A stretch of 64,000 nt of DNA from Callorhinchus milii (taxonomy: Eukaryota): NCBI RefSeq assembly GCF_018977255.1, contig NW_024704742.1, positions 37,758,001 to 37,822,000 of the forward strand. The letters run 5' to 3'. How positions within the stretch are numbered: the first letter of the stretch is position 1; each line of letters starts with the position of its first letter. A program made the translations under genes and the position numbers. The notes beneath the pieces are model-generated. The model was not told the DNA's origin and ran no database searches. It was given only the letters and a program-made list of their open reading frames with translations. Positions 27,881-64,000 of the stretch are shown here, one piece after another.

Positions 27881-27911
<31 letters not shown>

Positions 27912-28163: not shown

Positions 28164-28335
28164 AACATAAGAAATAGGAGCAGGAGTAGGCCATTCGGCC
28201 CCTCAAGCCTGCCCCGCCATTTAATAAGACCATGGCTGATCTTCTAACCTAATTCCAGTTACCCGCCCTATCCCCATATCCCTTTATCCTTTAGGTTTTA
28301 AAAATCAATCTCAGTCTTGAATATGTTCAATGACA
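28164..28335 (-). mobile_element. CR1 3' tail fragment
   Basis: Closely matches 10755-10925 (AACATAAGAAATAGGAGCAGGAGTAGGCCATTCGGCCCCTCAAG). Confidence 0.85.
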
Positions 28336-29895
28336 TCCTGATGGAAGAGCTCCCTCTTTCACCAATACTGGTGCCAGTGGTCCACAAAATAAGGCATTAT
28401 ACAAATGCAAGTTCTTCCTTTTCTCCAGCCAGATCTTGTTGCATGTGGAGTCCCAGTACACAGCAAGTACACTTAGCTAAAACCTGCTTCTTTTAATCAC
28501 AGGCTCCACATGTGGTTCCAATGCGAGTTGGGGTCAAAGTAGGAGACATGTTCCTTCAGGATACCATTCTGTGTGATGGCCAAATGGATGCCTTTTATAA
28601 CTACCACATGGGTGTAACAGGTAAGAACTGTCACTGAATAAATACAAGGTTTGCATTTAAGTACTGGAAATTAATTGCATTTCCCTCTGTTTTCTAACCT
28701 CTCTGAGGATCTGTGGTGTTTAGTTCTAAGGCTACCAGCTGCCCTCCAGTATCTCATTAAAGTGGCCGTACTTCATGTGTGAATCCGAGTGGTAAAGGGT
28801 CACTGGGCTGTTTGACCATGAGAGGAGATGGAATATCACAGACAAGTCTCTTCCTGTCCACACACAAGCACCTTCCAGCCAGGACCATTGAATGTGATAA
28901 GAAGTGGGAACACTGGCTGTATTTTTCCTCCTACTTATACAAACTAATTGTAACATCCCATCTGCTGCCAAGCTGAGACCAGGTAACCTGGCACAAATCT
29001 GGGTCTTCCAAGTCTCAGTTCAACGCCAGGCAGTGCCTTTGTCAACCAAGTGCTCAAAGAGAGCAGCTTGGGAATGGAGCAATCTATATGCAGGGTTTGA
29101 TAAATTTATAAGATAGTATTGTTCTGATTAAAAATGGGGGGCGTTATTTGAATAGAAAATGTTCTTTTTGTTTCTATTTAATCATGTATTGTAACCATTT
29201 CTTAAAATTAGATACTGAAATAATGGGCACAATGTGTTTGAGCTCAGATTGCAATCCAAAGTGCCTGTTCCCAGCCTCCAAGACACAGTCGTGTATTAAC
29301 TACCTCAGCTGTGGAGGTGCTCATCGATGATTGGAAAAATGTGAACAAATTTACTGGAACAAACCTGAATCCTTTCTGAAGTTCAAAATATGGAGGAGGT
29401 TAATTCTGTTCTGAACTGTAAAGGGAACATGACTGTTGACTAAAGATGCTCCTACAAAATACACAGTCACTACACACTTCATAGTTGTGAAGCACTTTAA
29501 ACATCCTCGCGAATAGAAACATACTATTCTTGGTGGAGACCCAGGCATCCTACATGGCTCAGCCAACTTAAGACCAAAAGATTCTGTGGTTGAATTCCTT
29601 GGAAGCTCAAGCTTTTAACCTTTTTAGAGCAACAATATATCTTTAAAATTATCCTCTGTGGTGACAGATAAGCAAAGTCACCCGAGGGCAGTACTTTTAC
29701 ACTGTGATGACTGGCCTAACAGAAGCCAGGAAGGTGTGTGTTATCCTAAAACCACCTTGGAGGGTGTGAATGTGTGAACCAAAGCTGTGCAAGCTCATAG
29801 AACGGACGTAGATGTAAAGTAGCATGTTACTTGATAGCCATCATTATGTATAGCTACGGTCTCTTGGCCATGCACATATTTATATAAAGGTTTGA

Positions 29896-30192
<297 letters not shown>

Positions 30193-30795
30193 TAGGAGAA
30201 GGTTTCAGAAAGTTGCATATTCTAAGCTTTTTCAAGCCTCAAAAACAAATGTCATAGAGGGGACCTCTATAGAGGTATATAAGATGCTGAATGAGATTGA
30301 GAAAGTAAACCTACAATAATATATTCAGATATACCAAGCCAGCAGAAAACAAGGTACAGGTTCAGAGTTGTAAAGGACATTATTTAGGACACACAACAAG
30401 AAGTGTTTCTTTACACGTTGCTGCAACTGCAGTAGATTACCAGGAGGGATGGCAGAAGCTAGGTTGCTGGACACTTTTTAAAAAAAACTATGCGGTAATG
30501 AGAGATGATAGCATGGATATTCTGGAAGGCTCAGATTGAATAGGCCGAAAGGTTTTATTTATCCAAACCTCTTTTGTGATCTTATGTCATCCAGTCTGCC
30601 CTAAACCCTATGGGCTTGCAAGAGGTCTTCCAAACTATTTGGCACTCAACCAGACAGAGGCCAACATTATTCACTTCGACTAACATATGTGCCACACTTG
30701 TTTTTAAATGTATAACACTTATAATGAAATTAAAATTTTATTTGGTACTATTGTGTAGCCTCGAAGTGCTACATTTTAATTAGGAGCCTTAATAA

Positions 30796-30975
<180 letters not shown>

Positions 30976-30978
30976 TAA

Positions 30979-31257
<279 letters not shown>

Positions 31258-31635
31258 TAACCAGACTCAGACATGTTCATTTATTAGCACAACTCTACTT
31301 TTATATGGTGTTTCCTGTTTTGGGAATGGGCTATCCTGCAAGTGAGAGAATTGGCAGCTATTCTGCCCCCAGGACTCTGCTATTGTTTTTTAAGCACCTG
31401 CAGGAGACGAGACTGGGGTCATGGCTCAACTCCAGGTATCTCCCTTTCCCATTTGGAAAAGGTCTGCTCGGTCACTCCTCACATGGCTGATATCATTGAC
31501 TGAGGAGCGGTCAAATTGTGTCCCCCTGAAGTAGGGTCAAGTAGATTGTTTTCTTTTCAACCAATGATTCACCCACTGTGCATTCCATCATCTTCAGATT
31601 CAAGGGTAATGACTTAGATTTACTATTTATTCTAG

Positions 31636-31791
<156 letters not shown>

Positions 31792-32189
31792 TGATCCTTT
31801 TTACTTCCTGATTCACCCAATGGGTCAATGTGGGATGTAATAAAACAACAAATTGCATTTATAAAGCGCCTTTCATGTCGGGAGGATGTCCCAAGCCACT
31901 GCAGTCGAGGGTTTGCATCCAAGCTGGGGTTGGATTCGGGAGGGATGGGGGCCAGGAAGATGACCGGTCAGAGGAAGGTTTTGAGGACCTTGAAGGAGGT
32001 AAGGGAGAGTTGAGGTGATAGGGCTCTCGTTGGAGTTCCACAAAGTGAGAGCAGATAGGCTGAAAGCCTGACTGCTGATGGTAGGATAGGCAGGGGACCT
32101 GAAGCAGGCCAGTGGAGTAAGGAGAAAATTAGGGAAAAGGTTTTCCCTCTTTTTTTAAAAAAATGCATTTTTTGTGTTTGTCTTTCTAG

Positions 32190-32357
<168 letters not shown>

Positions 32358-32705
32358 TAAATTACACCTAAATTTTACTACAAGAACTGAAGATACTCTG
32401 CAGCTAAGCTACTGACTGGATAAAATTGAGCTTTTATTTTAGAGGTTACAGCCTGATTCCAATGAAATGTAGGTGCATTTTGTTTTTATAATGAATGTGT
32501 AAAGTAGGTAGGTTTTAAAACTATTCAAAACTTCAGTCCACATAAAATGGTTCTGAAAATTAGTGTAACTTTTAAATATTTGATTAAAAGTACTGAAGTT
32601 TGAAATCATAGTAATATTGTGTATGTGGAATCCATACTTTTGTTAAAATTCATAAACTCCTTCCTATTATCTCTCAATTCAGATTGACCATTTTTTTCTT
32701 TATGA

Positions 32706-32711
32706 AATAAA
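32706..32711 (+). terminator. Candidate ACAT2 polyadenylation signal
   Basis: AATAAA about 345 bp after the stop codon. Confidence 0.4.
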
Positions 32712-33113
32712 TTGCTCAATGTACCATTGCTGAATCTTGTAAACTGACTCTCAAATTACATCAAGTGCCAGTATTTATAGAAGGGCAAGATGGTTGAATA
32801 CATGTGAGAAAGCAGGGGAACATTCATTGTATTTTAATTTTGCTTTAATTGATTTACAAATGCTGCCCTAATACTTTTGAGCATTTTATCATTCCCCATG
32901 GTAAGATCAGCAACCAAGAATCAGAGAGGTTACTTATTTGGGGAGATAATAATCATCCTTGTATTTGATATAGTGCCTTATTACATCCTTCCCCAGTAGT
33001 ATTTTTAATTAATGTTTTCCCCAGTGAATTTGTGTGAGGGAGAAATCATGTCCACAATGAAATAACATACACAATTAATTAGATTTGAAAAGACCAGAAG
33101 CACAACATCAACG

Positions 33114-33119
33114 TTTATT
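33114..33119 (-). terminator. Candidate TCP1 polyadenylation signal
   Basis: AATAAA on the minus strand about 360 bp after the TCP1 stop, followed by a GT-rich tract. Confidence 0.45.
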
Positions 33120-33477
33120 CATGAAATTAAGGTGGTCTCTTAACAGCTCCCTACATAGATGGGCTGATCACTTGACAACTGTCACATTTTATTTCTGAAG
33201 GAGCTTGAAGCACAACTGTCAATGTACAGGAAATAATTTTGCACAAATAACTTGAAAGAGTTGACTATAGGTAACAAAGTAAGAGGTCTTTTAAATCCGG
33301 TTTGTGCCAAATAGCACTAAACAAGCATAGTAAATTAAACAGAGCACTAAACAAGTGGCACTGAATTTCAGACAAGTATGACAAGCTGCTCAATCTAGAA
33401 CAGAAGTACAAGAAGCACCTGATGGATGCCAAGAGTTAAACATAAATTATAATAGCTGATTTTAGAACTCAGGTGCT

Positions 33478-36037
33478 TCAGCCATTAAGCTCTCCACTTT
33501 GAACTGCATCTTGGTAACTCTTTCCTTTGTCTTGCTTTTCATCTGGGTAAAGTTTGATGAGATCATCAATTCGCAGGATGGTTATAGCAGCTTCTGTTGC
33601 AAACTTCAGACTCTTGACTTTAACCATAGTAGGCTCAAAGACACCAGCTTGTTTGTTGTCCCTTGGCTTCCCATTCAATAAATCAAGACCAATCCTGCAC
33701 AAACAAAATGTGAATTTGATTAACACTGTTTTAATAGCCAGTCACTACAATATTAGTAAAACATTCATAATTTCCGATTGAATTCTGACAACTCAGCCAT
33801 AAAAGTTACTTTAACAAGATGGAGAAAATCAATTTTGCACTTTACTGCTATCTGGGGCACCAGGTCACCAAAAATCAATGATTGCTCATGAATTGCAACA
33901 ATGTTCAAATTTAGTTTCATCGCTGATTCAGACAACAATGGGTCTCAAGTCACAATCTTTTGCAGACCACAGTACAATAAAATTTTTACCATTTCAAAGT
34001 TTTGCGATCAGGATTGACCTGAGCTTCGTTGTGGAATGCACGCAACTTTGCAACAAGGTCTGTAGAATCCTGAGCAGCATTCACTGCCAGAGTCTTAGGA
34101 ATAACCAACATGGCCCGGGCAAATTCTGCAATGGCAAGTTGTTCACGTGATCCCTAAACAAAAAGACAACCAACAGTTAAATACATGAAGTACTTTTAAC
34201 TTATTTTCTTAAAATAATTTTTAATACTGCAAATTAATAGGGACAGTAATCCCTGGTTAATCAGCTCAAAGCATACGTTAAAAGTGCCCTCCCCCAATAA
34301 TCTTGAAATACAATTAAACCCATACCAAACTAGTTGCATAGTTTTCCAGGTAGATGGAGAGTGCAGCTTCCACAGCCCCACCTCCTGGAACTAAAGACTT
34401 GGACTCAAGCACTCTCTTCACAACACAGAGTGCTTCATGTCGGGAGCGCTCCATCTCATCACACATGAAATCATTTGCTCCTCGCAGAATGATTGATGCA
34501 GAATTACGGGCCTTTGTACTGAAAATACAAATTAAACTTTACAACAATAGTACTTGTGAGGGTTGGGTTAAACTCATTTTAAAATGTCAGCATCAATTTA
34601 TACCTCACTTTTAGAAATCAGAATCTAGATCCCTTTTTCAATCACAAACATTGTGTGCACTGCTCCTGAATGAACAATACCTATTGCTTATATACTGTTA
34701 TGCAAAGCAATATTCATTGCCGACTTAAACCAGGAATAGATGTGACAGTTCTACTTTCATCAGCAAACTGCTTAGATTATATTTATATGCACAACAAATT
34801 TAATCTGCATCTGTGCAGTCAATATAAAAAAAATTACAAACCATTACAATCCCAACATCTTTTTCAATTCTGCAACACTAACAGTAACATTACAAGATAC
34901 TACACTGTATACATTGGAGATAATTTTTTATGTTCAGCTAATGCATTACTGAGAAGACATCAGCAAGGTCTTCAGTCACACAAGGCTGAATATTCTCTAT
35001 CCCAAGCGTACAACTGCTCATGCCACAGATATTAGCAGGGCAGCAAATAAATGGGAGTTCAGTAAGTTGTACATGTTTTTCTTACTTTTTAACAAGTATC
35101 AGTTCATCATCGCATATCCTTTCTTGAACCACCTCCTCAGCTTGGCCCACTAAAGAGGGATCAAAACTCTCATCTCCTTCCAAGTTTGCAAGAGTTGAAC
35201 AGATAGTTGCTATAAACAAAAACAGGTAAAAATCATCAGAATAGGTTTCTCAGTCCAAGACACCCTTTTCTGATTTACGTGACTTTTAACACTTCAACAA
35301 AATTACATTTGTATAGCGCCTTTCATGTCGGGAGGACGTCAGAATCACTAGGAAAATTCCAGCTGATTCCGAATGCCAACCTTTCAAAATTGAATGACAT
35401 TAATATTGGACATTAAACTCGATAGCTTGTCACTCCAAGGGTAAAGAGCTGAGCAATAAGTTATCCGGAGTAGCGAGTTTGATAAAGGTCCTCCCAGCTG
35501 CTCCGTGGCTTTTGGCCCTATCCTGTCACACGATAAGATGTAAGACAGCGTAGCAGGCCACGGCTTAGCCTCTGCAACGCATCTGAGCATAGGCACCCAA
35601 CCTCCGCTACCAATCACAGCATCGGGCTGGAGGCCTTTGTAATGCAAGATGCCATATTACAGAACGAGTTATCAGATCAATTTTCGACTAAGAAGATAGC
35701 GAATAAGCTATTTTCTGCTCGCTGGATTCAAACAATCTGAGTCAGTCATAGTGGCTATCACTAGCCATTATGAATGTCAGCACAGACAGAGGCTACTCAG
35801 TGCACCATTGATCCGCGCTAGGAGTTGGGCCCACAGAATAAAATTAATGTTTTTGGTTTTGGGCCTCGTCCAACCAGGTCGGAATTCCGGATAACTGGAG
35901 TCCAATAAGGCAGGGGATCACTAGTTTGAAAGTATGTATAATTCAAAACAGTAACCTAGTAAAAAAAATTGCTGCACTTACCTCCACTGGCCTTAACAAT
36001 TCGTCTGAGGTCTTTCTTCAGACAACGGCGTAATGCC
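33478..36037 (-). pseudogene. TCP1: TCP1 (CCT-alpha) 3' fragment copy A: partial exon 8 and exons 9-12
   Basis: Exon 12 33478-33694 (IGLDL...FATEAAITILRIDDLIKL), exon 11 33990-34153, exon 10 34326-34518, exon 9 35086-35209, exon 8 remnant 35982-36037 (ALRRCLKKDLRRIVKASG). Canonical splice sites. Exon 8 is cut by a minisatellite; ERSLHDA is changed to ERSRHEA. Confidence 0.92.
34928..35058 (-). ncRNA. SNORA20: Box H/ACA snoRNA, SNORA20 orthologue, copy 1
   Basis: Minus strand: CTCCCATTTATTTGCTGC...GAGCAGTTGTACGCTTGGGAT (hairpin 1), H box AGAGAA, TTCAGC...GCTGAA (hairpin 2), ACA plus 3 nt. About 131 nt, in TCP1 intron 9, where SNORA20 is hosted in human. The 5' half matches recalled human SNORA20. 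Confidence 0.9.
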
Positions 36038-36084
36038 CTGCAGGGACCTGCGCTGCAGGGACCTGCGCTGCAGGGACCTGCCCT
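36036..36084. repeat. 15-bp minisatellite (CTGCAGGGACCTGCG)x3 capping truncated TCP1 exon 8
   Basis: Read directly; same length again at 39508, 42400, 47756, 51175, 61049 and 63925. Confidence 0.93.
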
Positions 36085-37275
36085 ACATCCTCCCATCACA
36101 GCATCAAGCTAATTCTAAATATATCCAATATATCAAGCAGGAAGTACATCATCCAACCCCAGGAACTCTAAATTTAGAGTAGAGTTCCAACAGATATCTA
36201 CGATTATCATAGATATACCTTTGGTCACTGGAAAGAGTTCCCACTTTATTTCCTAAAACTAGTTTGTCCTAAAAATATAATAAATTTGAACTTGTAAAAA
36301 ATATATAGGGATGGAAATGTTTTCATACCATAAATAATCGCCCAAATAATTGTTGCATTTGATATAGTGGTTAGAACACTGAAACATCTCAAAGCACTTC
36401 ACATATAATTGCTGTCAAATGTAATGACTGTATATTTGTAAATAGTTGCAACATCCTTCTGACACAGAGACAAGATTGCTACCAACTGAGCTCAGTTGAC
36501 AAATAATAAATAGAGGCCAGAAATGTTTTTAAGTTTTGGTACAGAATTCTTTGAAAGTAAAGTAACTATTGTAATTACTTTACAGGAATAAAGCTACTCC
36601 TGAGAGTTTAAATAATTATAATATTCCTTGCATTTGATATCATGCCTTTCATGTCGGGAGGTTGTCACAAAGCGTTTCACAGGATTTATTTTAAAGTATA
36701 GTGACTGAACTGAGATCTCGAGAGCAGCTGGCAGTCAAATGACAAAGAATGGAAAACAGGTATTTAAAAACCAAAGTCAGATGATGCTCTAACGGCCCAC
36801 TGGGTAAAAGTACCAACTGCCGTAGCATTAAACCTTGCATTTGATATAGTGCATTTAATATAGAATCTCAGGAATGTCACAAGTTTGATCTCAATAAGAA
36901 CTACTCCGAGATGCAATACCATGCGAAGGCTGCTATGTAAATGCAGGTTGTTGTTGTTGCTTTGGGTTATTATGACTGGTCTCAGAGTCCCTGGCTTGGG
37001 AGAGTTCATGCTTCTGACTGACTCTCTTGCCCCATTGGAACCTGAGCATGGTCACAAGATGTCAGGTAATTTTAGGGTCAGCCTTATCACAAGATTGGTC
37101 TGGATTGACAACAATCACTCTCGCTCTCAAGGCTCACTCACAAAGAATGAGCACTAATGGAGATGGAGGAAGGTAACTGGTGCCTATAGAACTGTAACCC
37201 AGCAAAGGATCACCTGAAAACAACAAGACAACAACAACAAGATAGCATTTATAGAGCGCCTTTCATGTCGGGAAG

Positions 37276-37950
37276 CCCTTGCAGGGACCGGCCCTTGCAG
37301 GGACCGGCCCTTGCAGGGACCGGCCCTTGCAGGGACCGGCCCTTGCAGGGACCGGCCCTTGCGGGACCGCCCTTGCAGGGACCGGCCCTTGCAGGGACCG
37401 GCCCTTGCAGGGACCGGCCCTTGCAGGGACCGGCCCTTGCAGGGACCGGCCCTTGCAGGGACCGGCCCTTGCAGGGACCGGCCCTTGCAGGGACCGGCCC
37501 TTGCAGGGACCGGCCCTTGCAGGGACCGGCCCTTGCAGGGACCGGGCGCCCTTGCAGGGACCGGCCCTTGCAGGGACCGGCCCTTGCAGGGACCGGCCCT
37601 TGCTGGGACCGGCCCTTGCTGGGACCGGCCCTTGCTGGGACCGGCCCTTGCTGGGACCGGCCCTTGCTGGGACCGGCCCTTGCTGGGACCGGCCCTGGAC
37701 CGGCCCTTGCTGGGACCGGCCCTTGCTGGGACCGGCCCTTGCTGGGACCGGCCCTTGCTGGGACCGGCCCTTGCAGGGACCGGCCCTTGCTGGGACCGGC
37801 CCTTGCTGGGACCGGCCCTTGCAGGGACCGGCCCTTGCTGGGACCGGCCCTTGCTGGGACCGGCCCTTGCAGGGACCGGCCCTTGCAGGGACCGGCCCTT
37901 GCAGGGACCGGCCCTTGCAGGGACCGGCCCTTGCAGGGACCGGCCCTTGC
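37276..37950. repeat. 16-bp minisatellite (CCCTTGCAGGGACCGG), ~42 units with TTGCTGGG variants
   Basis: Read directly. Confidence 0.97.
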
Positions 37951-39508
37951 AAATCATTTGCTCCTCGCAGAATGATTGATGCAGAAGTACGGGCCTTTGT
38001 ACTGAAAAATACAAATTAAACTTTACAACAATAGTACTTGTGAGGGTTGGGTTAAACTCATTTTAAAATGTCAGCATCAATTTATACCTCACTTTTAGAA
38101 ATCAGAATCTAGATCCCTTTTTCAATCACAAACATTGTGTGCACTGCTCCTGAATGAACAATACCTATTGCTTATATACTGTTATGCAAAGCAATATTCA
38201 TTGCCGACTTAAACCAGGAATAGATGTGACAGTTCTACTTTCATCAGCAAACTGCTTAGATTATATTTATATGCACAACAAAATTAATCTGCATCTGTGC
38301 AGTCAATATAAAAAAAATTCAACCCCATTACAATCCCAACACCTTTTTCAATTCTGCAACACTAACAGTAACATTACAAGATACTACACTGTATACATTG
38401 GAGATAATTTTTTATGTTCAGCTAATGCATTACTGAGAAGACATCAGCAAGGTCTTCAGTCACACAAGGCTGAATATTCTCTATCCCAAGCGTACAACTG
38501 CTCATGCCACAGATATTAGCAGGGCAGCAAATAAATGGGAGTTCAGTAAGTTGTACATGTTTTTCTTACTTTTTAACAAGTATCAGTTCATCATCGCATA
38601 TCCTTTCTTGAACCACCTCCTCAGCTTGGCCCACTAAAGAGGGATCAAAACTCTCATCTCCTTCCAAGTTTGCAAGAGTTGAACAGATAGTTGCTATAAA
38701 CAAAAACAGGTAAAAATCATCAGAATAGGTTTCTCAGTCCAAGACACCCTTTTCTGATTTACGGACTTTTAACACTTCAACAAAATTACATTTGTATAGC
38801 GCCTTTCATGTCGGGAGGACGTCAGAATCACTAGGAAAATTCCAGCTGATTCCGAATGCCAACCTTTCAAAATTGAATGACATTAATATTGGACATTAAA
38901 CTCGATAGCTTGTCACTCCAAGGGTAAAGAGCTGAGCAATAAGTTATCCGGAGTAGCGAGTTTGATAAAGGTCCTCCCAGCTGCTCCGTGGCTTTTGGCC
39001 CTATCCTGTCACACGATAAGATGTAAGACAGCGTAGCAGGCCTCTGCAACGCATCTGAGCATAGGCACCCAACCTCCGCTACCAATCACAGCATCGGGCT
39101 GGAGGCCTTTGTAATGCAAGATGCCATATTACAGAACGAGTTATCAGATCAATTTTCGACTAAGAAGATAGCGAATAAGCTATTTTCTGCTCGCTGGATT
39201 CAAACAATCTGAGTCAGTCATAGTGGCTATCACTAGCCATTATGAATGTCAGCACAGACAGAGGCTACTCAGTGCACCATTGATCCGCGCTAGGAGTTGG
39301 GCCCACAGAATAAAATTAATGTTTTTGGTTTTGGGCCTCGTCCAACCAGGTCGGAATTCCGGATAACTGGAGTCCAATAAGGCAGGGGATCACTAGTTTG
39401 AAAGTATGTATAATTCAAAACAGTAACCTAGTAAAAAAAATTGCTGCACTTACCTCCACTGGCCTTAACAATTCGTCTGAGGTCTTTCTTCAGACAACGG
39501 CGTAATGC
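37951..39508 (-). pseudogene. TCP1: TCP1 internal fragment (partial exon 8 to partial exon 10), unit 2
   Basis: Copy of 34468-36036. Confidence 0.9.
38412..38542 (-). ncRNA. SNORA20: SNORA20 copy 2
   Basis: Same sequence as copy 1 by eye; flanking splice sites retained. Confidence 0.88.
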
Positions 39509-40740
39509 CCTGCAGGGACCTGCGCTGCAGGGACCTGCGCTGCAGGGACCTGCCCTACATCCTCCCATCACAGCATCAAGCTAATTCTAAATATATCCAA
39601 TATATCAAGCAGGAAGTACATCATCCAACCCCAGGAACTCTAAATTTAGAGTAGAGTTCCAACAGATATCTACGATTATCATAGATATACCTTTGGTCAC
39701 TGGAAAGAGTTCCCACTTTATTTCCTAAAACTAGTTTGTCCTAAAAATATAATAAATTTGAACTTGTAAAAAATATATAGGGATGGAAATGTTTTCATAC
39801 CATAAATAATCGCCCAAATAATTGTTGCATTTGATATAGTGGTTAGAACACTGAAACATCTCAAAGCACTTCACATATAATTGCTGTCAAATGTAATGAC
39901 TGTATATTTGTAAATAGTTGCAACATCCTTCTGACACAGAGACAAGATTGCTACCAACTGAGCTCAGTTGACAAATAATAAATAGAGGCCAGAAATGTTT
40001 TTAAGTTTTGGTACAGAATTCTTTGAAAGTAAAGTAACTATTGTAATTACTTTACAGGAATAAAGCTACTCCTGAGAGTTTAAATAATTATAATATTCCT
40101 TGCATTTGATATCATGCCTTTCATGTCGGGAGGTTGTCACAAAGCGTTTCACAGGATTTATTTTAAAGTATAGTGACTGAACTGAGATCTCGAGAGCAGC
40201 TGGCAGTCAAATGACAAAGAATGGAAAACAGGTATTTAAAAACCAAAGTCAGATGATGCTCTAACGGCCCACTGGGTAAAAGTACCAACTGCCGTAGCAT
40301 TAAACCTTGCATTTGATATAGTGCATTTAATATAGAATCTCAGGAATGTCACAAGTTTGATCTCAATAAGAACTACTCCGAGATGCAATACCATGCGAAG
40401 GCTGCTATGTAAATGCAGGTTGTTGTTGTTGCTTTGGGTTATTATGACTGGTCTCAGAGTCCCTGGCTTGGGAGAGTTCATGCTTCTGACTGACTCTCTT
40501 GCCCCATTGGAACCTGAGCATGGTCACAAGATGTCAGGTAATTTTAGGGTCAGCCTTATCACAAGATTGGTCTGGATTGACAACAATCACTCTCGCTCTC
40601 AAGGCTCACTCACAAAGAATGAGCACTAATGGAGATGGAGGAAGGTAACTGGTGCCTATAGAACTGTAACCCAGCAAAGGATCACCTGAAAACAACAAAA
40701 CAACAACAACAAGATAGCATTTATAGAGCGCCATTCAGCG

Positions 40741-40842
40741 CCTTGCAGGGACCGGCCCTTGCAGGGACCGGCCCTTGCAGGGACCGGCCCTTGCAGGGAC
40801 CGGCCCTTGCAGGGACCGGCCCTTGCAGGGACCGGCCCTTGC
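40741..40842. repeat. 16-bp minisatellite, ~6 units
   Basis: Read directly. Confidence 0.97.
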
Positions 40843-42400
40843 AAATCATTTGCTCCTCGCAGAATGATTGATGCAGAAGTACGGGCCTTTGTACTGAAAA
40901 ATACAAATTAAACTTTACAACAATAGTACTTGTGAGGGTTGGGTTAAACTCATTTTAAAATGTCAGCATCAATTTATACCTCACTTTTAGAAATCAGAAT
41001 CTAGATCCCTTTTTCAATCACAAACATTGTGTGCACTGCTCCTGAATGAACAATACCTATTGCTTATATACTGTTATGCAAAGCAATATTCATTGCCGAC
41101 TTAAACCAGGAATAGATGTGACAGTTCTACTTTCATCAGCAAACTGCTTAGATTATATTTATATGCACAACAAAATTAATCTGCATCTGTGCAGTCAATA
41201 TAAAAAAAATTCAACCCCATTACAATCCCAACACCTTTTTCAATTCTGCAACACTAACAGTAACATTACAAGATACTACACTGTATACATTGGAGATAAT
41301 TTTTTATGTTCAGCTAATGCATTACTGAGAAGACATCAGCAAGGTCTTCAGTCACACAAGGCTGAATATTCTCTATCCCAAGCGTACAACTGCTCATGCC
41401 ACAGATATTAGCAGGGCAGCAAATAAATGGGAGTTCAGTAAGTTGTACATGTTTTTCTTACTTTTTAACAAGTATCAGTTCATCATCGCATATCCTTTCT
41501 TGAACCACCTCCTCAGCTTGGCCCACTAAAGAGGGATCAAAACTCTCATCTCCTTCCAAGTTTGCAAGAGTTGAACAGATAGTTGCTATAAACAAAAACA
41601 GGTAAAAATCATCAGAATAGGTTTCTCAGTCCAAGACACCCTTTTCTGATTTACGGACTTTTAACACTTCAACAAAATTACATTTGTATAGCGCCTTTCA
41701 TGTCGGGAGGACGTCAGAATCACTAGGAAAATTCCAGCTGATTCCGAATGCCAACCTTTCAAAATTGAATGACATTAATATTGGACATTAAACTCGATAG
41801 CTTGTCACTCCAAGGGTAAAGAGCTGAGCAATAAGTTATCCGGAGTAGCGAGTTTGATAAAGGTCCTCCCAGCTGCTCCGTGGCTTTTGGCCCTATCCTG
41901 TCACACGATAAGATGTAAGACAGCGTAGCAGGCCTCTGCAACGCATCTGAGCATAGGCACCCAACCTCCGCTACCAATCACAGCATCGGGCTGGAGGCCT
42001 TTGTAATGCAAGATGCCATATTACAGAACGAGTTATCAGATCAATTTTCGACTAAGAAGATAGCGAATAAGCTATTTTCTGCTCGCTGGATTCAAACAAT
42101 CTGAGTCAGTCATAGTGGCTATCACTAGCCATTATGAATGTCAGCACAGACAGAGGCTACTCAGTGCACCATTGATCCGCGCTAGGAGTTGGGCCCACAG
42201 AATAAAATTAATGTTTTTGGTTTTGGGCCTCGTCCAACCAGGTCGGAATTCCGGATAACTGGAGTCCAATAAGGCAGGGGATCACTAGTTTGAAAGTATG
42301 TATAATTCAAAACAGTAACCTAGTAAAAAAAATTGCTGCACTTACCTCCACTGGCCTTAACAATTCGTCTGAGGTCTTTCTTCAGACAACGGCGTAATGC
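40843..42400 (-). pseudogene. TCP1: TCP1 internal fragment, unit 3
   Basis: Copy of 34468-36036. Confidence 0.9.
41304..41434 (-). ncRNA. SNORA20: SNORA20 copy 3
   Basis: Same sequence as copy 1 by eye. Confidence 0.88.
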
Positions 42401-43632
42401 CCTGCAGGGACCTGCGCTGCAGGGACCTGCGCTGCAGGGACCTGCCCTACATCCTCCCATCACAGCATCAAGCTAATTCTAAATATATCCAATATATCAA
42501 GCAGGAAGTACATCATCCAACCCCAGGAACTCTAAATTTAGAGTAGAGTTCCAACAGATATCTACGATTATCATAGATATACCTTTGGTCACTGGAAAGA
42601 GTTCCCACTTTATTTCCTAAAACTAGTTTGTCCTAAAAATATAATAAATTTGAACTTGTAAAAAATATATAGGGATGGAAATGTTTTCATACCATAAATA
42701 ATCGCCCAAATAATTGTTGCATTTGATATAGTGGTTAGAACACTGAAACATCTCAAAGCACTTCACATATAATTGCTGTCAAATGTAATGACTGTATATT
42801 TGTAAATAGTTGCAACATCCTTCTGACACAGAGACAAGATTGCTACCAACTGAGCTCAGTTGACAAATAATAAATAGAGGCCAGAAATGTTTTTAAGTTT
42901 TGGTACAGAATTCTTTGAAAGTAAAGTAACTATTGTAATTACTTTACAGGAATAAAGCTACTCCTGAGAGTTTAAATAATTATAATATTCCTTGCATTTG
43001 ATATCATGCCTTTCATGTCGGGAGGTTGTCACAAAGCGTTTCACAGGATTTATTTTAAAGTATAGTGACTGAACTGAGATCTCGAGAGCAGCTGGCAGTC
43101 AAATGACAAAGAATGGAAAACAGGTATTTAAAAACCAAAGTCAGATGATGCTCTAACGGCCCACTGGGTAAAAGTACCAACTGCCGTAGCATTAAACCTT
43201 GCATTTGATATAGTGCATTTAATATAGAATCTCAGGAATGTCACAAGTTTGATCTCAATAAGAACTACTCCGAGATGCAATACCATGCGAAGGCTGCTAT
43301 GTAAATGCAGGTTGTTGTTGTTGCTTTGGGTTATTATGACTGGTCTCAGAGTCCCTGGCTTGGGAGAGTTCATGCTTCTGACTGACTCTCTTGCCCCATT
43401 GGAACCTGAGCATGGTCACAAGATGTCAGGTAATTTTAGGGTCAGCCTTATCACAAGATTGGTCTGGATTGACAACAATCACTCTCGCTCTCAAGGCTCA
43501 CTCACAAAGAATGAGCACTAATGGAGATGGAGGAAGGTAACTGGTGCCTATAGAACTGTAACCCAGCAAAGGATCACCTGAAAACAACAAAACAACAACA
43601 ACAAGATAGCATTTATAGAGCGCCATTCAGCG

Positions 43633-46198
43633 CCTTGCAGGGACCGGCCCTTGCAGGGACCGGCCCTTGCAGGGACCGGCCCTTGCAGGGACCGGCCCTT
43701 GCAGGGACCGGCCCTTGCAGGGACCGGCCCTTGCAGGGACCGGCCCTTGCAGGGACCGGCCCTTGCAGGGACCGGCCCTTGCAGGGACCGGCCCTTGCAG
43801 GGACCGGCCCTTGCAGGGACCGGCCCTTGCAGGGACCGGCCCTTGCAGGGACCGGCCCTTGCAGGGACCGGCCCTTGCAGGGACCGGCCCTTGCAGGGAC
43901 CGGCCCTTGCAGGGACCGGCCCTTGCAGGGACCGGCCCTTGCAGGGACCGGCCCTTGCAGGGACCGGCCCTTGCAGGGACCGGCCCTTGCAGGGACCGGC
44001 CCTTGCAGGGACCGGCCCTTGCAGGGACCGGCCCTTGCAGGGACCGGCCCTTGCAGGGACCGGCCCTTGCAGGGACCGGCCCTTGCAGGGACCGGCCCTT
44101 GCAGGGACCGGCCCTTGCAGGGACCGGCCCTTGCAGGGACCGGCCCTTGCAGGGACCGGCCCTTGCAGGGACCGGCCCTTGCAGGGACCGGCCCTTGCAG
44201 GGACTGGCCCTTGCAGGGACCGGCCCTTGCAGGGACCGGCCCTTGCAGGGACCGGCCCTTGCAGGGACCGGCCCTTGCAGGGACCGGCCCTGGCAGGGAC
44301 CGGCCCTTGCAGGGACCGGCCCTTGCAGGGACCGGCCCTTGCAGGGACCGGCCCTTGCAGGGACCGGCCCTTGCAGGGACCGGCCCTTGCAGGGACCGGC
44401 CCTTGCAGGGACCGGCCCTTGCAGGGACCGGCCCTTGCAGGGACCGGCCCTTGCAGGGACCGGCCCTTGCAGGGACCGGCCCTTGCAGGGACCGGCCCTT
44501 GCAGGGACCGGCCCTTGCAGGGACCGGCCCTTGCAGGGACCGGCCCTTGCAGGGACCGGCCCTTGCAGGGACCGGCCCTTGCAGGGACCGGCCCTTGCAG
44601 GGACCGGCCCTTGCAGGGACCGGCCCTTGCAGGGACCGGCCCTTGCAGGGACCGGCCCTTGCAGGGACCGGCCCTTGCAGGGACCGGCCCTTGCAGGGAC
44701 CGGCCCTTGCAGGGACCGGCCCTTGCAGGGACCGGCCCTTGCAGGGACCGGCCCTTGCAGGGACCGGCCCTTGCAGGGACCGGCCCTTGCAGGGACCGGC
44801 CCTTGCAGGGACCGGCCCTTGCAGGGACCGGCCCTTGCAGGGACCGGCCCTTGCAGGGACCGGCCCTTGCAGGGACCGGCCCTTGCAGGGACCGGCCCTT
44901 GCAGGGACCGGCCCTTGCAGGGACCGGCCCTTGCAGGGACCGGCCCTTGCAGGGACCGGCCCTTGCAGGGACCGGCCCTTGCAGGGACCGGCCCTTGCAG
45001 GGACCGGCCCTTGCAGGGACCGGCCCTTGCAGGGACCGGCCCTTGCAGGGACCGGCCCTTGCAGGGACCGGCCCTTGCAGGGACCGGCCCTTGCAGGGAC
45101 CGGCCCTTGCAGGGACCGGCCCTTGCAGGGACCGGCCCTTGCAGGGACCGGCCCTTGCAGGGACCGGCCCTTGCAGGGACCGGCCCTTGCAGGGACCGGC
45201 CCTTGCAGGGACCGGCCCTTGCAGGGACCGGCCCTTGCAGGGACCGGCCCTTGCAGGGACCGGCCCTTGCAGGGACCGGCCCTTGCAGGGACCGGCCCTT
45301 GCAGGGACCGGCCCTTGCAGGGACCGGCCCTTGCAGGGACCGGCCCTTGCAGGGACCGGCCCTTGCAGGGACCGGCCCTTGCAGGGACCGGCCCTTGCAG
45401 GGACCGGCCCTTGCAGGGACCGGCCCTTGCAGGGACCGGCCCTTGCAGGGACCGGCCCTTGCAGGGACCGGCCCTTGCAGGGACCGGCCCTTGCAGGGAC
45501 CGGCCCTTGCAGGGACCGGCCCTTGCAGGGACCGGCCCTTGCAGGGACCGGCCCTTGCAGGGACCGGCCCTTGCAGGGACCGGCCCTTGCAGGGACCGGC
45601 CCTTGCAGGGACCGGCCCTTGCAGGGACCGGCCCTTGCAGGGACCGGCCCTTGCAGGGACCGGCCCTTGCAGGGACCGGCCCTTGCAGGGACCGGCCCTT
45701 GCAGGGACCGGCCCTTGCAGGGACCGGCCCTTGCAGGGACCGGCCCTTGCAGGGACCGGCCCTTGCAGGGACCGGCCCTTGCAGGGACCGGCCCTTGCAG
45801 GGACCGGCCCTTGCAGGGACCGGCCCTTGCAGGGACCGGCCCTTGCAGGGACCGGCCCTTGCAGGGACCGGCCCTTGCAGGGACCGGCCCTTGCAGGGAC
45901 CGGCCCTTGCAGGGACCGGCCCTTGCAGGGACCGGCCCTTGCAGGGACCGGCCCTTGCAGGGACCGGCCCTTGCAGGGACCGGCCCTTGCAGGGACCGGC
46001 CCTTGCAGGGACCGGCCCTTGCAGGGACCGGCCCTTGCAGGGACCGGCCCTTGCAGGGACCGGCCCTTGCAGGGACCGGCCCTTGCAGGGACCGGCCCTT
46101 GCAGGGACCGGCCCTTGCAGGGACCGGCCCTTGCAGGGACCGGCCCTTGCAGGGACCGGCCCTTGCAGGGACCGGCCCTTGCAGGGACCGGCCCTTGC
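43633..46198. repeat. 16-bp minisatellite, ~160 nearly pure units
   Basis: Read directly; only two variant units noticed (~44205 and ~44292). Confidence 0.98.
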
Positions 46199-47756
46199 AA
46201 ATCATTTGCTCCTCGCAGAATGATTGATGCAGAAGTACGGGCCTTTGTACTGAAAAATACAAATTAAACTTTACAACAATAGTACTTGTGAGGGTTGGGT
46301 TAAACTCATTTTAAAATGTCAGCATCAATTTATACCTCACTTTTAGAAATCAGAATCTAGATCCCTTTTTCAATCACAAACATTGTGTGCACTGCTCCTG
46401 AATGAACAATACCTATTGCTTATATACTGTTATGCAAAGCAATATTCATTGCCGACTTAAACCAGGAATAGATGTGACAGTTCTACTTTCATCAGCAAAC
46501 TGCTTAGATTATATTTATATGCACAACAAAATTAATCTGCATCTGTGCAGTCAATATAAAAAAAATTCAACCCCATTACAATCCCAACACCTTTTTCAAT
46601 TCTGCAACACTAACAGTAACATTACAAGATACTACACTGTATACATTGGAGATAATTTTTTATGTTCAGCTAATGCATTACTGAGAAGACATCAGCAAGG
46701 TCTTCAGTCACACAAGGCTGAATATTCTCTATCCCAAGCGTACAACTGCTCATGCCACAGATATTAGCAGGGCAGCAAATAAATGGGAGTTCAGTAAGTT
46801 GTACATGTTTTTCTTACTTTTTAACAAGTATCAGTTCATCATCGCATATCCTTTCTTGAACCACCTCCTCAGCTTGGCCCACTAAAGAGGGATCAAAACT
46901 CTCATCTCCTTCCAAGTTTGCAAGAGTTGAACAGATAGTTGCTATAAACAAAAACAGGTAAAAATCATCAGAATAGGTTTCTCAGTCCAAGACACCCTTT
47001 TCTGATTTACGGACTTTTAACACTTCAACAAAATTACATTTGTATAGCGCCTTTCATGTCGGGAGGACGTCAGAATCACTAGGAAAATTCCAGCTGATTC
47101 CGAATGCCAACCTTTCAAAATTGAATGACATTAATATTGGACATTAAACTCGATAGCTTGTCACTCCAAGGGTAAAGAGCTGAGCAATAAGTTATCCGGA
47201 GTAGCGAGTTTGATAAAGGTCCTCCCAGCTGCTCCGTGGCTTTTGGCCCTATCCTGTCACACGATAAGATGTAAGACAGCGTAGCAGGCCTCTGCAACGC
47301 ATCTGAGCATAGGCACCCAACCTCCGCTACCAATCACAGCATCGGGCTGGAGGCCTTTGTAATGCAAGATGCCATATTACAGAACGAGTTATCAGATCAA
47401 TTTTCGACTAAGAAGATAGCGAATAAGCTATTTTCTGCTCGCTGGATTCAAACAATCTGAGTCAGTCATAGTGGCTATCACTAGCCATTATGAATGTCAG
47501 CACAGACAGAGGCTACTCAGTGCACCATTGATCCGCGCTAGGAGTTGGGCCCACAGAATAAAATTAATGTTTTTGGTTTTGGGCCTCGTCCAACCAGGTC
47601 GGAATTCCGGATAACTGGAGTCCAATAAGGCAGGGGATCACTAGTTTGAAAGTATGTATAATTCAAAACAGTAACCTAGTAAAAAAAATTGCTGCACTTA
47701 CCTCCACTGGCCTTAACAATTCGTCTGAGGTCTTTCTTCAGACAACGGCGTAATGC
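46199..47756 (-). pseudogene. TCP1: TCP1 internal fragment, unit 4
   Basis: Copy of 34468-36036. Confidence 0.9.
46660..46790 (-). ncRNA. SNORA20: SNORA20 copy 4
   Basis: Same sequence as copy 1 by eye. Confidence 0.88.
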
Positions 47757-48988
47757 CCTGCAGGGACCTGCGCTGCAGGGACCTGCGCTGCAGGGACCTG
47801 CCCTACATCCTCCCATCACAGCATCAAGCTAATTCTAAATATATCCAATATATCAAGCAGGAAGTACATCATCCAACCCCAGGAACTCTAAATTTAGAGT
47901 AGAGTTCCAACAGATATCTACGATTATCATAGATATACCTTTGGTCACTGGAAAGAGTTCCCACTTTATTTCCTAAAACTAGTTTGTCCTAAAAATATAA
48001 TAAATTTGAACTTGTAAAAAATATATAGGGATGGAAATGTTTTCATACCATAAATAATCGCCCAAATAATTGTTGCATTTGATATAGTGGTTAGAACACT
48101 GAAACATCTCAAAGCACTTCACATATAATTGCTGTCAAATGTAATGACTGTATATTTGTAAATAGTTGCAACATCCTTCTGACACAGAGACAAGATTGCT
48201 ACCAACTGAGCTCAGTTGACAAATAATAAATAGAGGCCAGAAATGTTTTTAAGTTTTGGTACAGAATTCTTTGAAAGTAAAGTAACTATTGTAATTACTT
48301 TACAGGAATAAAGCTACTCCTGAGAGTTTAAATAATTATAATATTCCTTGCATTTGATATCATGCCTTTCATGTCGGGAGGTTGTCACAAAGCGTTTCAC
48401 AGGATTTATTTTAAAGTATAGTGACTGAACTGAGATCTCGAGAGCAGCTGGCAGTCAAATGACAAAGAATGGAAAACAGGTATTTAAAAACCAAAGTCAG
48501 ATGATGCTCTAACGGCCCACTGGGTAAAAGTACCAACTGCCGTAGCATTAAACCTTGCATTTGATATAGTGCATTTAATATAGAATCTCAGGAATGTCAC
48601 AAGTTTGATCTCAATAAGAACTACTCCGAGATGCAATACCATGCGAAGGCTGCTATGTAAATGCAGGTTGTTGTTGTTGCTTTGGGTTATTATGACTGGT
48701 CTCAGAGTCCCTGGCTTGGGAGAGTTCATGCTTCTGACTGACTCTCTTGCCCCATTGGAACCTGAGCATGGTCACAAGATGTCAGGTAATTTTAGGGTCA
48801 GCCTTATCACAAGATTGGTCTGGATTGACAACAATCACTCTCGCTCTCAAGGCTCACTCACAAAGAATGAGCACTAATGGAGATGGAGGAAGGTAACTGG
48901 TGCCTATAGAACTGTAACCCAGCAAAGGATCACCTGAAAACAACAAAACAACAACAACAAGATAGCATTTATAGAGCGCCATTCAGCG

Positions 48989-49617
48989 CCTTGCAGGGAC
49001 CGGCCCTTGCAGGGACCGGCCCTTGCAGGGACCGGCCCTTGCAGGGACCGGCCCTTGCAGGGACCGGCCCTTGCAGGGACCGGCCCTTGCAGGGACCGGC
49101 CCTTGCAGGGACCGGCCCTTGCAGGGACCGGCCCTTGCAGGGACCGGCCCTTGCAGGGACCGGCCCTTGCAGGGACCGGCCCTTGCAGGGACCGGCCCTT
49201 GCAGGGACCGGCCCTTGCAGGGACCGGCCCTTGCAGGGACCGGCCCTTGCAGGGACCGGCCCTTGCAGGGACCGGCCCTTGCAGGGACCGGCCCTTGCAG
49301 GGACCGGCCCTTGCAGGGACCGGCCCTTGCTGGGACCGGCCCTTGCTGGGACCGGCCCTTGCAGGGACCGGCCCTTGCTGGGACCGGCCCTTGCTGGGAC
49401 CGGCCCTTGCTGGGACCGGCCCTTGCTGGGACCGGCCCTTGCTGGGACCGGCCCTTGCGGGACCGGCCCTTGCAGGGACCGGCCCTTGCTGGGACCGGCC
49501 CTTGCTGGGACCGGCCCTTGCTGGGACCGGCCCTTGCAGGGACCGGCCCTTGCTGGGACCGGCCCTTGCTGGGACCGGCCCTTGCTGGGACCGGCCCTTG
49601 CAGGGACCGGCCCTTGC
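48989..49617. repeat. 16-bp minisatellite, ~39 units with TTGCTGGG variants in the right half
   Basis: Read directly. Confidence 0.97.
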
Positions 49618-51175
49618 AAATCATTTGCTCCTCGCAGAATGATTGATGCAGAAGTACGGGCCTTTGTACTGAAAAATACAAATTAAACTTTACAACAATA
49701 GTACTTGTGAGGGTTGGGTTAAACTCATTTTAAAATGTCAGCATCAATTTATACCTCACTTTTAGAAATCAGAATCTAGATCCCTTTTTCAATCACAAAC
49801 ATTGTGTGCACTGCTCCTGAATGAACAATACCTATTGCTTATATACTGTTATGCAAAGCAATATTCATTGCCGACTTAAACCAGGAATAGATGTGACAGT
49901 TCTACTTTCATCAGCAAACTGCTTAGATTATATTTATATGCACAACAAAATTAATCTGCATCTGTGCAGTCAATATAAAAAAAATTCAACCCCATTACAA
50001 TCCCAACACCTTTTTCAATTCTGCAACACTAACAGTAACATTACAAGATACTACACTGTATACATTGGAGATAATTTTTTATGTTCAGCTAATGCATTAC
50101 TGAGAAGACATCAGCAAGGTCTTCAGTCACACAAGGCTGAATATTCTCTATCCCAAGCGTACAACTGCTCATGCCACAGATATTAGCAGGGCAGCAAATA
50201 AATGGGAGTTCAGTAAGTTGTACATGTTTTTCTTACTTTTTAACAAGTATCAGTTCATCATCGCATATCCTTTCTTGAACCACCTCCTCAGCTTGGCCCA
50301 CTAAAGAGGGATCAAAACTCTCATCTCCTTCCAAGTTTGCAAGAGTTGAACAGATAGTTGCTATAAACAAAAACAGGTAAAAATCATCAGAATAGGTTTC
50401 TCAGTCCAAGACACCCTTTTCTGATTTACGGACTTTTAACACTTCAACAAAATTACATTTGTATAGCGCCTTTCATGTCGGGAGGACGTCAGAATCACTA
50501 GGAAAATTCCAGCTGATTCCGAATGCCAACCTTTCAAAATTGAATGACATTAATATTGGACATTAAACTCGATAGCTTGTCACTCCAAGGGTAAAGAGCT
50601 GAGCAATAAGTTATCCGGAGTAGCGAGTTTGATAAAGGTCCTCCCAGCTGCTCCGTGGCTTTTGGCCCTATCCTGTCACACGATAAGATGTAAGACAGCG
50701 TAGCAGGCCTCTGCAACGCATCTGAGCATAGGCACCCAACCTCCGCTACCAATCACAGCATCGGGCTGGAGGCCTTTGTAATGCAAGATGCCATATTACA
50801 GAACGAGTTATCAGATCAATTTTCGACTAAGAAGATAGCGAATAAGCTATTTTCTGCTCGCTGGATTCAAACAATCTGAGTCAGTCATAGTGGCTATCAC
50901 TAGCCATTATGAATGTCAGCACAGACAGAGGCTACTCAGTGCACCATTGATCCGCGCTAGGAGTTGGGCCCACAGAATAAAATTAATGTTTTTGGTTTTG
51001 GGCCTCGTCCAACCAGGTCGGAATTCCGGATAACTGGAGTCCAATAAGGCAGGGGATCACTAGTTTGAAAGTATGTATAATTCAAAACAGTAACCTAGTA
51101 AAAAAAATTGCTGCACTTACCTCCACTGGCCTTAACAATTCGTCTGAGGTCTTTCTTCAGACAACGGCGTAATGC
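49618..51175 (-). pseudogene. TCP1: TCP1 internal fragment, unit 5
   Basis: Copy of 34468-36036. Confidence 0.9.
50079..50209 (-). ncRNA. SNORA20: SNORA20 copy 5
   Basis: Same sequence as copy 1 by eye. Confidence 0.88.
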
Positions 51176-52407: not shown

Positions 52408-52445
52408 CCTTGCAGGGACCGGCCCTGGCCGGGACCGGCCCTTGC
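52408..52445. repeat. 16-bp minisatellite, ~2 units (one degenerate)
   Basis: CCTTGCAGGGACCGGCCCTGGCCGGGACCGGCCCTTGC. Confidence 0.92.
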
Positions 52446-57385
<4,940 letters not shown>

Positions 57386-62281: not shown

Positions 62282-62367
62282 CCTTGCAGGGACCGGCCCT
62301 TGCAGGGACCGGCCCTTGCAGGGACCGGCCCTTGCAGGGACCGGCCCTTGCAGGGACCGGCCCTTGC
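62282..62367. repeat. 16-bp minisatellite, ~5 units
   Basis: Read directly. Confidence 0.96.
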
Positions 62368-63925: not shown

Positions 63926-64000
63926 CCTGCAGGGACCTGCGCTGCAGGGACCTGCGCTGCAGGGACCTGCCCTACATCCTCCCATCACAGCATCAAGCTA

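Follow-up and report, generated by a model that had tools for sequence, protein, structure and literature searches.

The window, meaning the whole 64,000-nucleotide stretch of Callorhinchus milii DNA that was analysed, contains two copies (A and B) of a block in which ACAT2 and TCP1 lie tail to tail, each followed by a tandemly amplified 2.78-kb unit that holds a TCP1 fragment and two minisatellite arrays. The exon numbering of TCP1 follows the initial annotation and the structure of the human gene; the boundaries of the TCP1 blocks come from our own homology mapping. The features were located as follows:

28502..34467, damaged copy A: exons from 4 onward of ACAT2 (plus strand) and exons 12-10 of TCP1 (minus strand), arranged tail to tail
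29924..29995, fold-back inverted duplication with 34-bp arms and one mismatch, at the boundary of ACAT2 intron 4 and exon 5
34468..36033, minus strand, first copy of the TCP1 fragment that is repeated: parts of exons 8 and 10, with exon 9 and the two introns in between
34928..35058, minus strand, H/ACA snoRNA copy resembling SNORA20, within the intron between exons 9 and 10 (Rfam E 5e-4; 39.7 bits, under the Rfam gathering score of 60)
36034..36081, plus strand, J1: 15-bp minisatellite of 3.2 units (TRF; RefSeq models P0126, P0127 and P0128)
36082..37274, piece X: 1.19 kb, 37% GC, with several SINE/L2 tail relics
37219..37274, minus strand, L2/SINE 3' tail, its 5' side truncated where the 16-mer array begins
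37275..37951, plus strand, J2: 16-bp minisatellite of 42.6 units, variant runs included (TRF)
37951..52445, four further complete tandem units, starting at 37951, 40843, 46199 and 49618
40733..40740, plus strand, second form of the join between X and the array: shortened SINE tail plus a short direct repeat of the flank
52446..53277, minus strand, truncated unit ending at J3 with ACAT2 exon 4
53278..64000, copy B: the same ACAT2/TCP1 block, then further units (starts 59492 and 62368), whose J1 and J2 are the same

The first copy of the TCP1 fragment runs on into intact exon 10 and exons 11-12. The four further complete units carry 16-mer arrays of about 6, 160, 39 and 3 copies, respectively, and each has a 15-mer array of 3.2 copies. 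Units 2 and 5 differ at 0 of 2782 bases and unit 2 differs from the unit of copy B at one of 2782. Copies A and B, with the unit excluded, diverge by 1.24%. The tandem amplification of the 2.78-kb unit came after the formation of the junctions. A putative ACAT2 exon 1 at 27032 was unsupported by PDB or Pfam.

At J1 the start of exon 8 is replaced, with piece X on one side of the array and the exon-8 remnant on the other, and homology to TCP1 begins beside the 15-mer at residue 310 of 559. Read in the TCP1 sense, the array is in frame, leading from an ATG within X through RAGPC-SAGPC-SAGPC-R into ALRRCLKKDL. At J2 the end of exon 10 is replaced by the 16-mer, and the join with what remains of exon 10 shows microhomology of 1 base; homology to TCP1 ends there at residue 385-387 of 559. 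The arrays detected by TRF and these limits of homology bear out the initial annotation, in which exon 8 was broken at the 15-mer and exon 10 at the 16-mer, and J1 and J2 are supported as true non-homologous junctions.

The same annotation had described the two motifs as related and pointing in one direction, which agrees with our comparison. Both units contain CAGGG, and they align with 14 of 16 positions identical (one indel, one substitution), a score equalled by 13 of 20,000 unit shuffles; this identity supports one common source as the probable origin of both arrays. Matches to the core motif numbered 271 in the window, against a mean of 4 expected from shuffles, and all 200 of those listed were on the plus strand, the J1 and J2 arrays being direct repeats in the same orientation. 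With up to one mismatch and on both strands, the core was not found in positions 1-36030 or 52447-61030; both intact exon-10 copies, in A and in B, are therefore free of it, as had been claimed. A 20-bp GC-rich array at 27110-27649 was rejected as a relative of the 16-mer, given that 2432 of 5000 shuffles scored alike.

The window holds seven short and six long arrays, 13 in total, which are copies of just two junctions and range in length from 48 bp to 2.6 kb. Copy number varies from 3 to 160 among the six paralogous 16-mer arrays and is 2 or 3 units for the 15-mer, RefSeq models included. The 13 arrays are not independent, and the window has two independent junctions only. The array forms a more stable hairpin than its dinucleotide shuffles (z = -5.5), but 125 of 500 unit-shuffled arrays fold equally stably and hairpin fragility was rejected as evidence; the self-complementarity of the unit was matched or exceeded by 4627 of 20,000 shuffled units.

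Piece X had been left out of the earlier account. The arrays had been described there as bracketing the 1.57-kb snoRNA-bearing TCP1 fragment, a description that stands for the fragment itself (its first two copies measure 1566 and 1555 bp) and, with the low score already given, for its SNORA20 match, but not for the interval it was applied to, which encloses X instead; the 15-mer and 16-mer arrays bracket X as much as they do the fragment. The longest stop-free frame within X is 97 aa, and X shows no terminal inverted repeats, no credible Rfam match and no marker of a TCP1 intron, such as a second snoRNA. A DNA transposon or Helitron was rejected for X, as it lacks terminal inverted repeats, a short target-site duplication and, judged by the length of its stop-free frames, coding capacity, and its source may be either TCP1 intron 7 or foreign DNA. 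The second form of the X/array join, found at five of the six joins, has the pattern of a secondary deletion with a templated insert, in a direction of change that we infer.

Other lesions of the duplicate lack the motif. The fold-back inverted duplication at 29924 is confined to copy A, J3 (53277/53278) has a 4-base direct repeat at the join, and neither of these two other clear lesions carries it; an 11-bp indel lies between two GCC triplets within the ACAT2/TCP1 duplicate. The fold-back insert, the 11-bp indel, J3 and the second X/array join show ordinary, motif-free error-prone repair. Only one of the 14 retroelement tails in positions 1-37300 adjoins the motif, so a general rule that it caps truncated LINE tails fails within the window. 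The earlier proposal that one process acted at two breaks keeps its common source and its true junctions, and the motif-coded residues beside TCP1 in a RefSeq model from another chromosome also speak for it. Its extension to a general breakpoint-capping system is so far unsupported: the independent junctions are two only, and J3, the fold-back and 13 of 14 tails are motif-free.

Partial TCP1 models are present in RefSeq on five contigs of C. milii. The intact TCP1 gene of the species is represented by XP_042202655.1, and further copies besides P0137 by XP_042194222.1 and XP_042189998.1. The J1 array has three units in the window, two in model P0003, which occurs on two contigs and continues from J1 into intact exons 8-12, and one in the RefSeq X2 isoforms. 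A different arrangement is given by P0137 (XP_042188778.1), on a 99-Mb contig of another chromosome, in which exon 8 is intact and preceded by GRSLQGP, an exact 7-residue match, at the level of the protein model, to the 16-mer translated in the TCP1 sense. Among 265 proteins, six besides P0137 had longer matches, every one a carrier of J1, and the remaining 258 matched the 16-mer translation over at most 4 residues. P0137 has I450/R453, as in the full-length RefSeq model P0139, whereas the J1 models that reach these residues (P0003, P0126 and P0128) have V450/K453, which points to two TCP1 sublineages with the motif upstream of exon 8, where it would most simply be present by inheritance. The motif in P0137 extends to about 1.3 units only and is followed by AGLRG, which differs from the start of X. 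Two CR1-type 3' ends in the window encode the same five residues, at an estimated chance expectation of about 25%. P0137 is the sole outside occurrence found, once more beside TCP1, and its place upstream of an intact exon 8 comes close to an array at the parental position, which the initial annotation had named as evidence against its own proposal.

The reading that we favour, with a probability of roughly 45%, is that one minisatellite lay beforehand upstream of TCP1 exon 8 and gave one end of each rearrangement, with slippage and tandem amplification later. The breaks would then likely have fallen in, or been copied from, a pre-existing repeat and not have been sealed by a dedicated process. 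As a first step, a deletion would have fused mid-exon 8 with the repeat block lying downstream of X, giving J1 with about one unit, which would have slipped to two and then three units. Secondly, a tandem duplication would have joined exon 10 back to the repeat block upstream of X, giving J2, and thirdly, unequal crossover would have multiplied and homogenised the unit. The enzymology, read from junction signatures alone, may have been polymerase-theta end joining or replication template switching; complex insertions are marked by templated inserts and microhomology (PMC5120786). The series of J1 units, one in the X2 isoforms, two in P0003 and three in the window, would fit such slippage. Against the pre-existing minisatellite, the AGLRG of P0137 is not the start of X, so that two repeat blocks or a further junction are needed, its 1.3 units have the size of a fresh junction insert and fit repeated capture equally, and X lacks a TCP1-intron marker.

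A birth of the motif at J1 by snap-back synthesis in end joining, followed by copying in cis to J2 and later expansion, with P0137 as a later join to an existing array, appears doubtful. In the TCP1 sense the unit has a built-in fold-back, in which GCAGG is followed, after two bases, by its own reverse complement and then AGG; the intact protein has Ala-Gly three residues ahead of the break (DAGAMAVRR), which could supply a seed, and a genuine fold-back insert exists elsewhere in the same duplicate. Precedents exist in yeast, where breaks can acquire short fold-back inserts of some 5-34 bp (PMC11724301), and in flies, with multi-round SD-MMEJ (PMC5728401). However, a separate transfer to the sublineage with intact exon 8 would be required, and there is no exact template longer than 10 bases outside the arrays in the array-free window.

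A single capture of an array-X-array segment that originated at another locus and became the templated insert in the 1.57-kb tandem duplication, with both switches in the minisatellite blocks of the donor, is unlikely. Both junctions and their direct orientation would be accounted for by one event, and X resembles ordinary SINE-rich genomic DNA. The combination in P0003 of J1 with intact exons 8-12 on two contigs is compatible with this capture but does not need J2, and the motif beside intact exon 8 in P0137 is left unexplained.

Decidedly unlikely is a source acting in trans that writes the motif at unrelated breaks, be it a mobile minisatellite or a small RNA serving as template for a LINE reverse transcriptase. 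The motif occurs in up to three pairs of flanks (J1, J2 and P0137), at J2 it adjoins a 5'-truncated L2/SINE tail, the AGLRG of P0137 could be of CR1-type origin, and R2 proteins show template jumps and snap-back at 5' junctions (PMC11371274). Nevertheless, all three cases lie within TCP1 duplicates, and the tails, J3 and the fold-back speak against it as above. The direct, not inverted, orientation means moreover that no writer of fixed polarity can have capped the 1.57-kb fragment at its two ends; such a writer would need to extend one end of the fragment and one end of X. The orientation likewise speaks against telomerase-like or reverse-transcriptase healing, for which outward-pointing inverted repeats at the two fragment ends would be expected. 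The source element or small RNA envisaged in the initial annotation was not found in Rfam, viral contigs or metagenome contigs: at E<=5 no Rfam family matched J1 or the opening 25 bases of J2, and at the gathering score none matched any array, the two-unit pattern had 0 matches in viral and 0 in metagenome contigs, and the exon-8 pattern had 0 in metagenome contigs. As weak tests, the translated array had no match in a word-index protein search and 63 in an exhaustive one, the best exact over 6 residues; the ten of these looked up were all unnamed ENA singletons, and the matches look like unrelated 16-bp-period repeats. For shorter TCP1 fragments, no named C. milii protein was among the 120 matches listed.

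Equally little credit goes to the wider version, in which a 16-21-base motif would be repeatedly written or captured at independent germline breaks. The J1, J2 and P0137 junctions would be three separate events, of which two adjoin truncated LINE 3' ends. Jumps of a LINE reverse transcriptase onto a short RNA would seed minisatellites and help to spread the TCP1 duplicon over many chromosomes.

Errors of a noisy assembly are highly improbable as the origin of the junctions: the units are nearly identical and the species' public long-read assembly rests on PacBio SMRT reads at 68x (PMC8302630), but two RefSeq models carry J1 in a separate form with 2 units, the arrays have structured variant runs, the X/array join has two forms, and eight of 24 listed sequencing runs (6 samples, 2 studies) contain 0.86-0.93 of the words of one unit, a share that cannot vouch for the junction words (an estimated 7%) and to which one run may contribute as the assembly's own source. 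Four small runs (2-13 million letters) contain 0.86-0.92 of the unit's words, which hints at a high copy number. No RNA run was among the listed runs containing unit words.

The arrays consist of head-to-tail units within 10-60 bp, of variable copy number, at the edge of duplicated sequence, as VNTRs do, and belong to the ordinary class of tandem repeats at duplication breakpoints. CAGGG repeats were reportedly described at hominoid pericentromeric duplications by Eichler, Archidiacono and Rocchi in 1999. Those repeats, as covered in PMC2566985, share with the present ones a CAGGG-bearing GC-rich tandem repeat beside duplicated, truncated gene segments across chromosomes, whereas here the unit is of 15-16 bp with one CAGGG and is seen with one duplicon family only; the likeness is functional only, no homology is claimed and the elephant-shark arrays are not filed as a member. 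Germline CNV breakpoints, enriched in tandem repeats according to PMC4090240, resemble this case in having duplication breakpoints in a GC-rich tandem repeat, but here two related arrays mark two junctions separated by 1.2 kb, and amplification within a macrosatellite-like unit of 2.78 kb followed. With SD-MMEJ/TMEJ and fold-back inserts (PMC5728401 and PMC11724301) the locus shares short inserts, fold-back inversion and short direct repeats of the flanks, together with microhomology of 1-4 bases (1 base at J2, the 4-base repeat at J3) that is not diagnostic; in contrast, no flank template for the motif was found in the DNA examined, and the arrays are far beyond insert size. As in FoSTeS/MMBIR (PMC5120786), an ectopically placed block of gene sequence is joined at several points and includes an additional captured piece, but the structure here is fixed and amplified in the germline and the order of events is not readable from one haplotype.

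In the literature searched, supplements aside, no paper on this TCP1/ACAT2 locus was found. In the elephant-shark assembly the 3' half of TCP1 is spread over five contigs or more, the largest of which carries the 2.78-kb tandem amplification; neither this scattering nor the amplification was found in the published literature searched. On the likely reading, the locus neatly illustrates a complex duplication linked to repeats. The scattered TCP1 copies inflate the annotation through chimeric models that begin with minisatellite-encoded residues. Should the motif recur at unrelated breaks, this would be a new route of minisatellite birth at repair junctions.

The tail-to-tail ACAT2/TCP1 block is present as two damaged copies, both in the part of the window from 28.5 kb onward, and tandem units come after each copy, every unit measuring 2.78 kb in addition to its variable array, with TCP1 exon numbers that we take from the human gene:

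From 28502: ACAT2/TCP1 copy A, damaged.
From 53278: ACAT2/TCP1 copy B, damaged.
Tandem unit, + strand: exon-10 remnant, intron with SNORA20, exon 9, intron, exon-8 remnant, then arrays and piece X.
Tandem unit, + strand, after the exon-8 remnant: 15-mer x3.2, piece X (1.19 kb), 16-mer x n.

Outside the tandem unit copies A and B are 1.24% apart, with 0-0.08% substitutions in most of the unit (34871-37260 vs. 59896-62273), and this low divergence points to recent homogenisation. The last TCP1 exon of the window is 100% identical to named Callorhinchus milii proteins.

The initial annotation had placed related minisatellites at both TCP1 breaks, and this was confirmed: J1 joins exon 8 to X through the 15-mer array (36034-36081) and J2 joins X to exon 10 through the 16-mer array (37275-37951 in the first unit, x42.6). 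Their relation is closer than was claimed, as 14 of 16 unit positions match, a likeness that goes beyond the 10-base core and was equalled by 13 of 20,000 shuffles. The core is indeed absent from 1-36030 and 52447-61030, which include both intact copies of exon 10. The arrays in the window, 7 of them short and 6 long, are copies: between those units that were compared, 0-1 of 2782 bases differ. There are therefore only two junction events in the window, J1 and J2. The arrays do bracket the TCP1 fragment, but they bracket X just as much. X is littered with SINEs, and no terminal repeats, long reading frame or credible RNA family were found in it. Among the 14 retroelement tails in 1-37300, the motif was present at one, the tail at J2.

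Beyond the window the evidence is at the protein level: RefSeq holds partial C. milii TCP1-like models on five contigs (139, 99, 81 and 24 Mb; 629 kb), the sole full-length RefSeq model seen being on a 12.7-kb scaffold. These models make up a dispersed duplicon family that falls into two sublineages (V450/K453 vs. I450/R453); V450/K453 is also what the 11 elasmobranch proteins examined have. The N-terminus of the TCP1 model P0003 (two contigs), MGGCRAGPCRAGPCRALRR, is J1 with two units, and the remainder differs by one residue from the full-length model P0004. Three units are present in the RefSeq models matching the window and one in their X2 isoforms; because the models thus show two, three and one units, J1 probably started from about one unit and then grew. 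In the X2 isoforms a GT-AG gap of 30 bases removes two units; a real intron would probably be longer, and reads of a copy with one unit may lie behind these isoforms. On the - strand, J1 (35981-36096) gives an in-frame chimeric frame in both copies A and B, made up of an ATG from X, repeat-coded residues and then TCP1 310-559.

In another model, P0137 (XP_042188778.1; 99-Mb contig), exon 8 is intact and preceded by GRSLQGPAGLRG, in which all 7 residues of GRSLQGP match the 16-mer when it is read in the TCP1 sense. Among 265 proteins, 258 matched the 16-mer at 4 residues or fewer, and the six others besides P0137 were J1 models. P0137 groups with the full-length model P0139 (I450/R453), apart from the J1 copies (V450/K453); thus, two sublineages have the motif linked to exon 8 on its upstream side. 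The sequence after the motif in P0137 differs from the start of X, and two CR1-type 3' ends in the window also code for the five residues found there, a coincidence expected by chance alone in about one case in four by our estimate.

The simplest account, tentatively held at a probability of about 0.45, is that two blocks of the repeat, one on either side of X, were already present upstream of exon 8 and were then rearranged. J1 would be a deletion that began in the downstream block and ended within exon 8, and J2 a tandem duplication that joined exon 10 back to the block lying upstream; slippage would have altered unit numbers (3-160), and unequal crossover would have amplified and homogenised the unit. 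Against this account, P0137 has only about 1.3 units, resembling a fresh insert, nothing in X marks it as derived from TCP1, and a hairpin argument for the array failed a fair control (125/500). That the motif arose at J1 through snap-back, with copying in cis, is rather unlikely, and a single capture of a foreign array-X-array piece is improbable; like the pre-existing repeat, both imply one local source.

A trans-acting writer of the motif, the only new reading among the four biological ones, is more doubtful still. The initial annotation had suggested a breakpoint-capping system, and capping of fixed polarity at both ends of the 1.57-kb snoRNA-bearing fragment is ruled out because the arrays are directly oriented, an orientation compatible with fixed-polarity extension of one end of that fragment and one end of X. 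No source element or small RNA for the motif was found in Rfam, viral or metagenome contigs or protein searches, all weak tests for a eukaryotic repeat. Eight of the 24 listed runs contained 0.86-0.93 of the unit words, which shows that the unit DNA exists and says nothing on the junctions. Snap-back and extra templates are among the features reported for R2-protein 5' junctions (PMC11371274), so a reverse-transcriptase version of capping is mechanistically possible. Assembly error at the junctions is very improbable. The C. milii assembly is described as long-read (PMC8302630).

Other lesions in the duplicate are ordinary signatures of error-prone repair, for which SD-MMEJ (PMC5728401), fold-back inserts at repaired breaks (PMC11724301) and template-switch insertions (PMC5120786) are among the comparisons described. 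At J3 (53277/53278) the junction of the unit with ACAT2 exon 4 has a direct repeat of 4 bases and lacks the motif; in copy A only, a near-perfect fold-back inverted duplication (29924-29995; -44.3 kcal/mol, z -14.7) takes the place of the pyrimidine tract ahead of ACAT2 exon 5; an 11-base indel at 35557 is flanked by two GCC triplets; and in five of the six X/array joins the SINE tail is shorter and a short piece of the flank is repeated. Exon 10 of copy A carries substitutions at 34434 and 34441 (L395R, D397E), which convert a site near the J2 breakpoint to an exact copy of a 12-base word of the SINE/L2 tail at 35322, 36648 and 37262; a brief template switch or gene conversion may have caused this. 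The exon 8-9 intron holds a CpG-rich stretch of 600 bases (35340-35930; 24 CpG in the 766-base intron vs. 2 in the next), with an 8-base direct repeat at its bounds and a short L2 tail preceding it; it may be an insertion that lacks annotation. A full tRNA-headed SINE (55415-55742) is present in copy B only, with 94% identity to that at 6651-6978.

In 27032-28502, a possible ACAT2 first exon with what we take to be a thiolase-like start, without database support, precedes a GC-rich array of 20-bp units (27110-27649), after which comes exon 4; motifs of exons 2-3 were not seen there, so copy A may have one more deletion. Two features lie further upstream:

6282-6638, + strand: uninterrupted homeodomain frame (Pfam E 1.9e-22).
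9074-9604, + strand: FAM47-family exon (Pfam E 1.3e-12).

The homeodomain frame, presumably HESX1-like, has a SINE directly after its stop and is a possible retrocopy or single-exon paralogue. FAM47 is presumably foreign to the usual ACAT2-TCP1 region, judging from human synteny, and this neighbour is consistent with an ectopic duplicate.

No literature on this locus was found. Enrichment of tandem repeats at CNV breakpoints is among the findings of PMC4090240 (background in PMC11925013), and of the named analogues the CAGGG repeat of hominoid pericentromeric duplications comes nearest, as far as described in PMC2566985, with a likeness in way of working at most and no membership claimed. What the initial annotation saw in the sequence is real and was seen correctly, and the locus is most probably a repeat-linked complex duplication of an ordinary kind.
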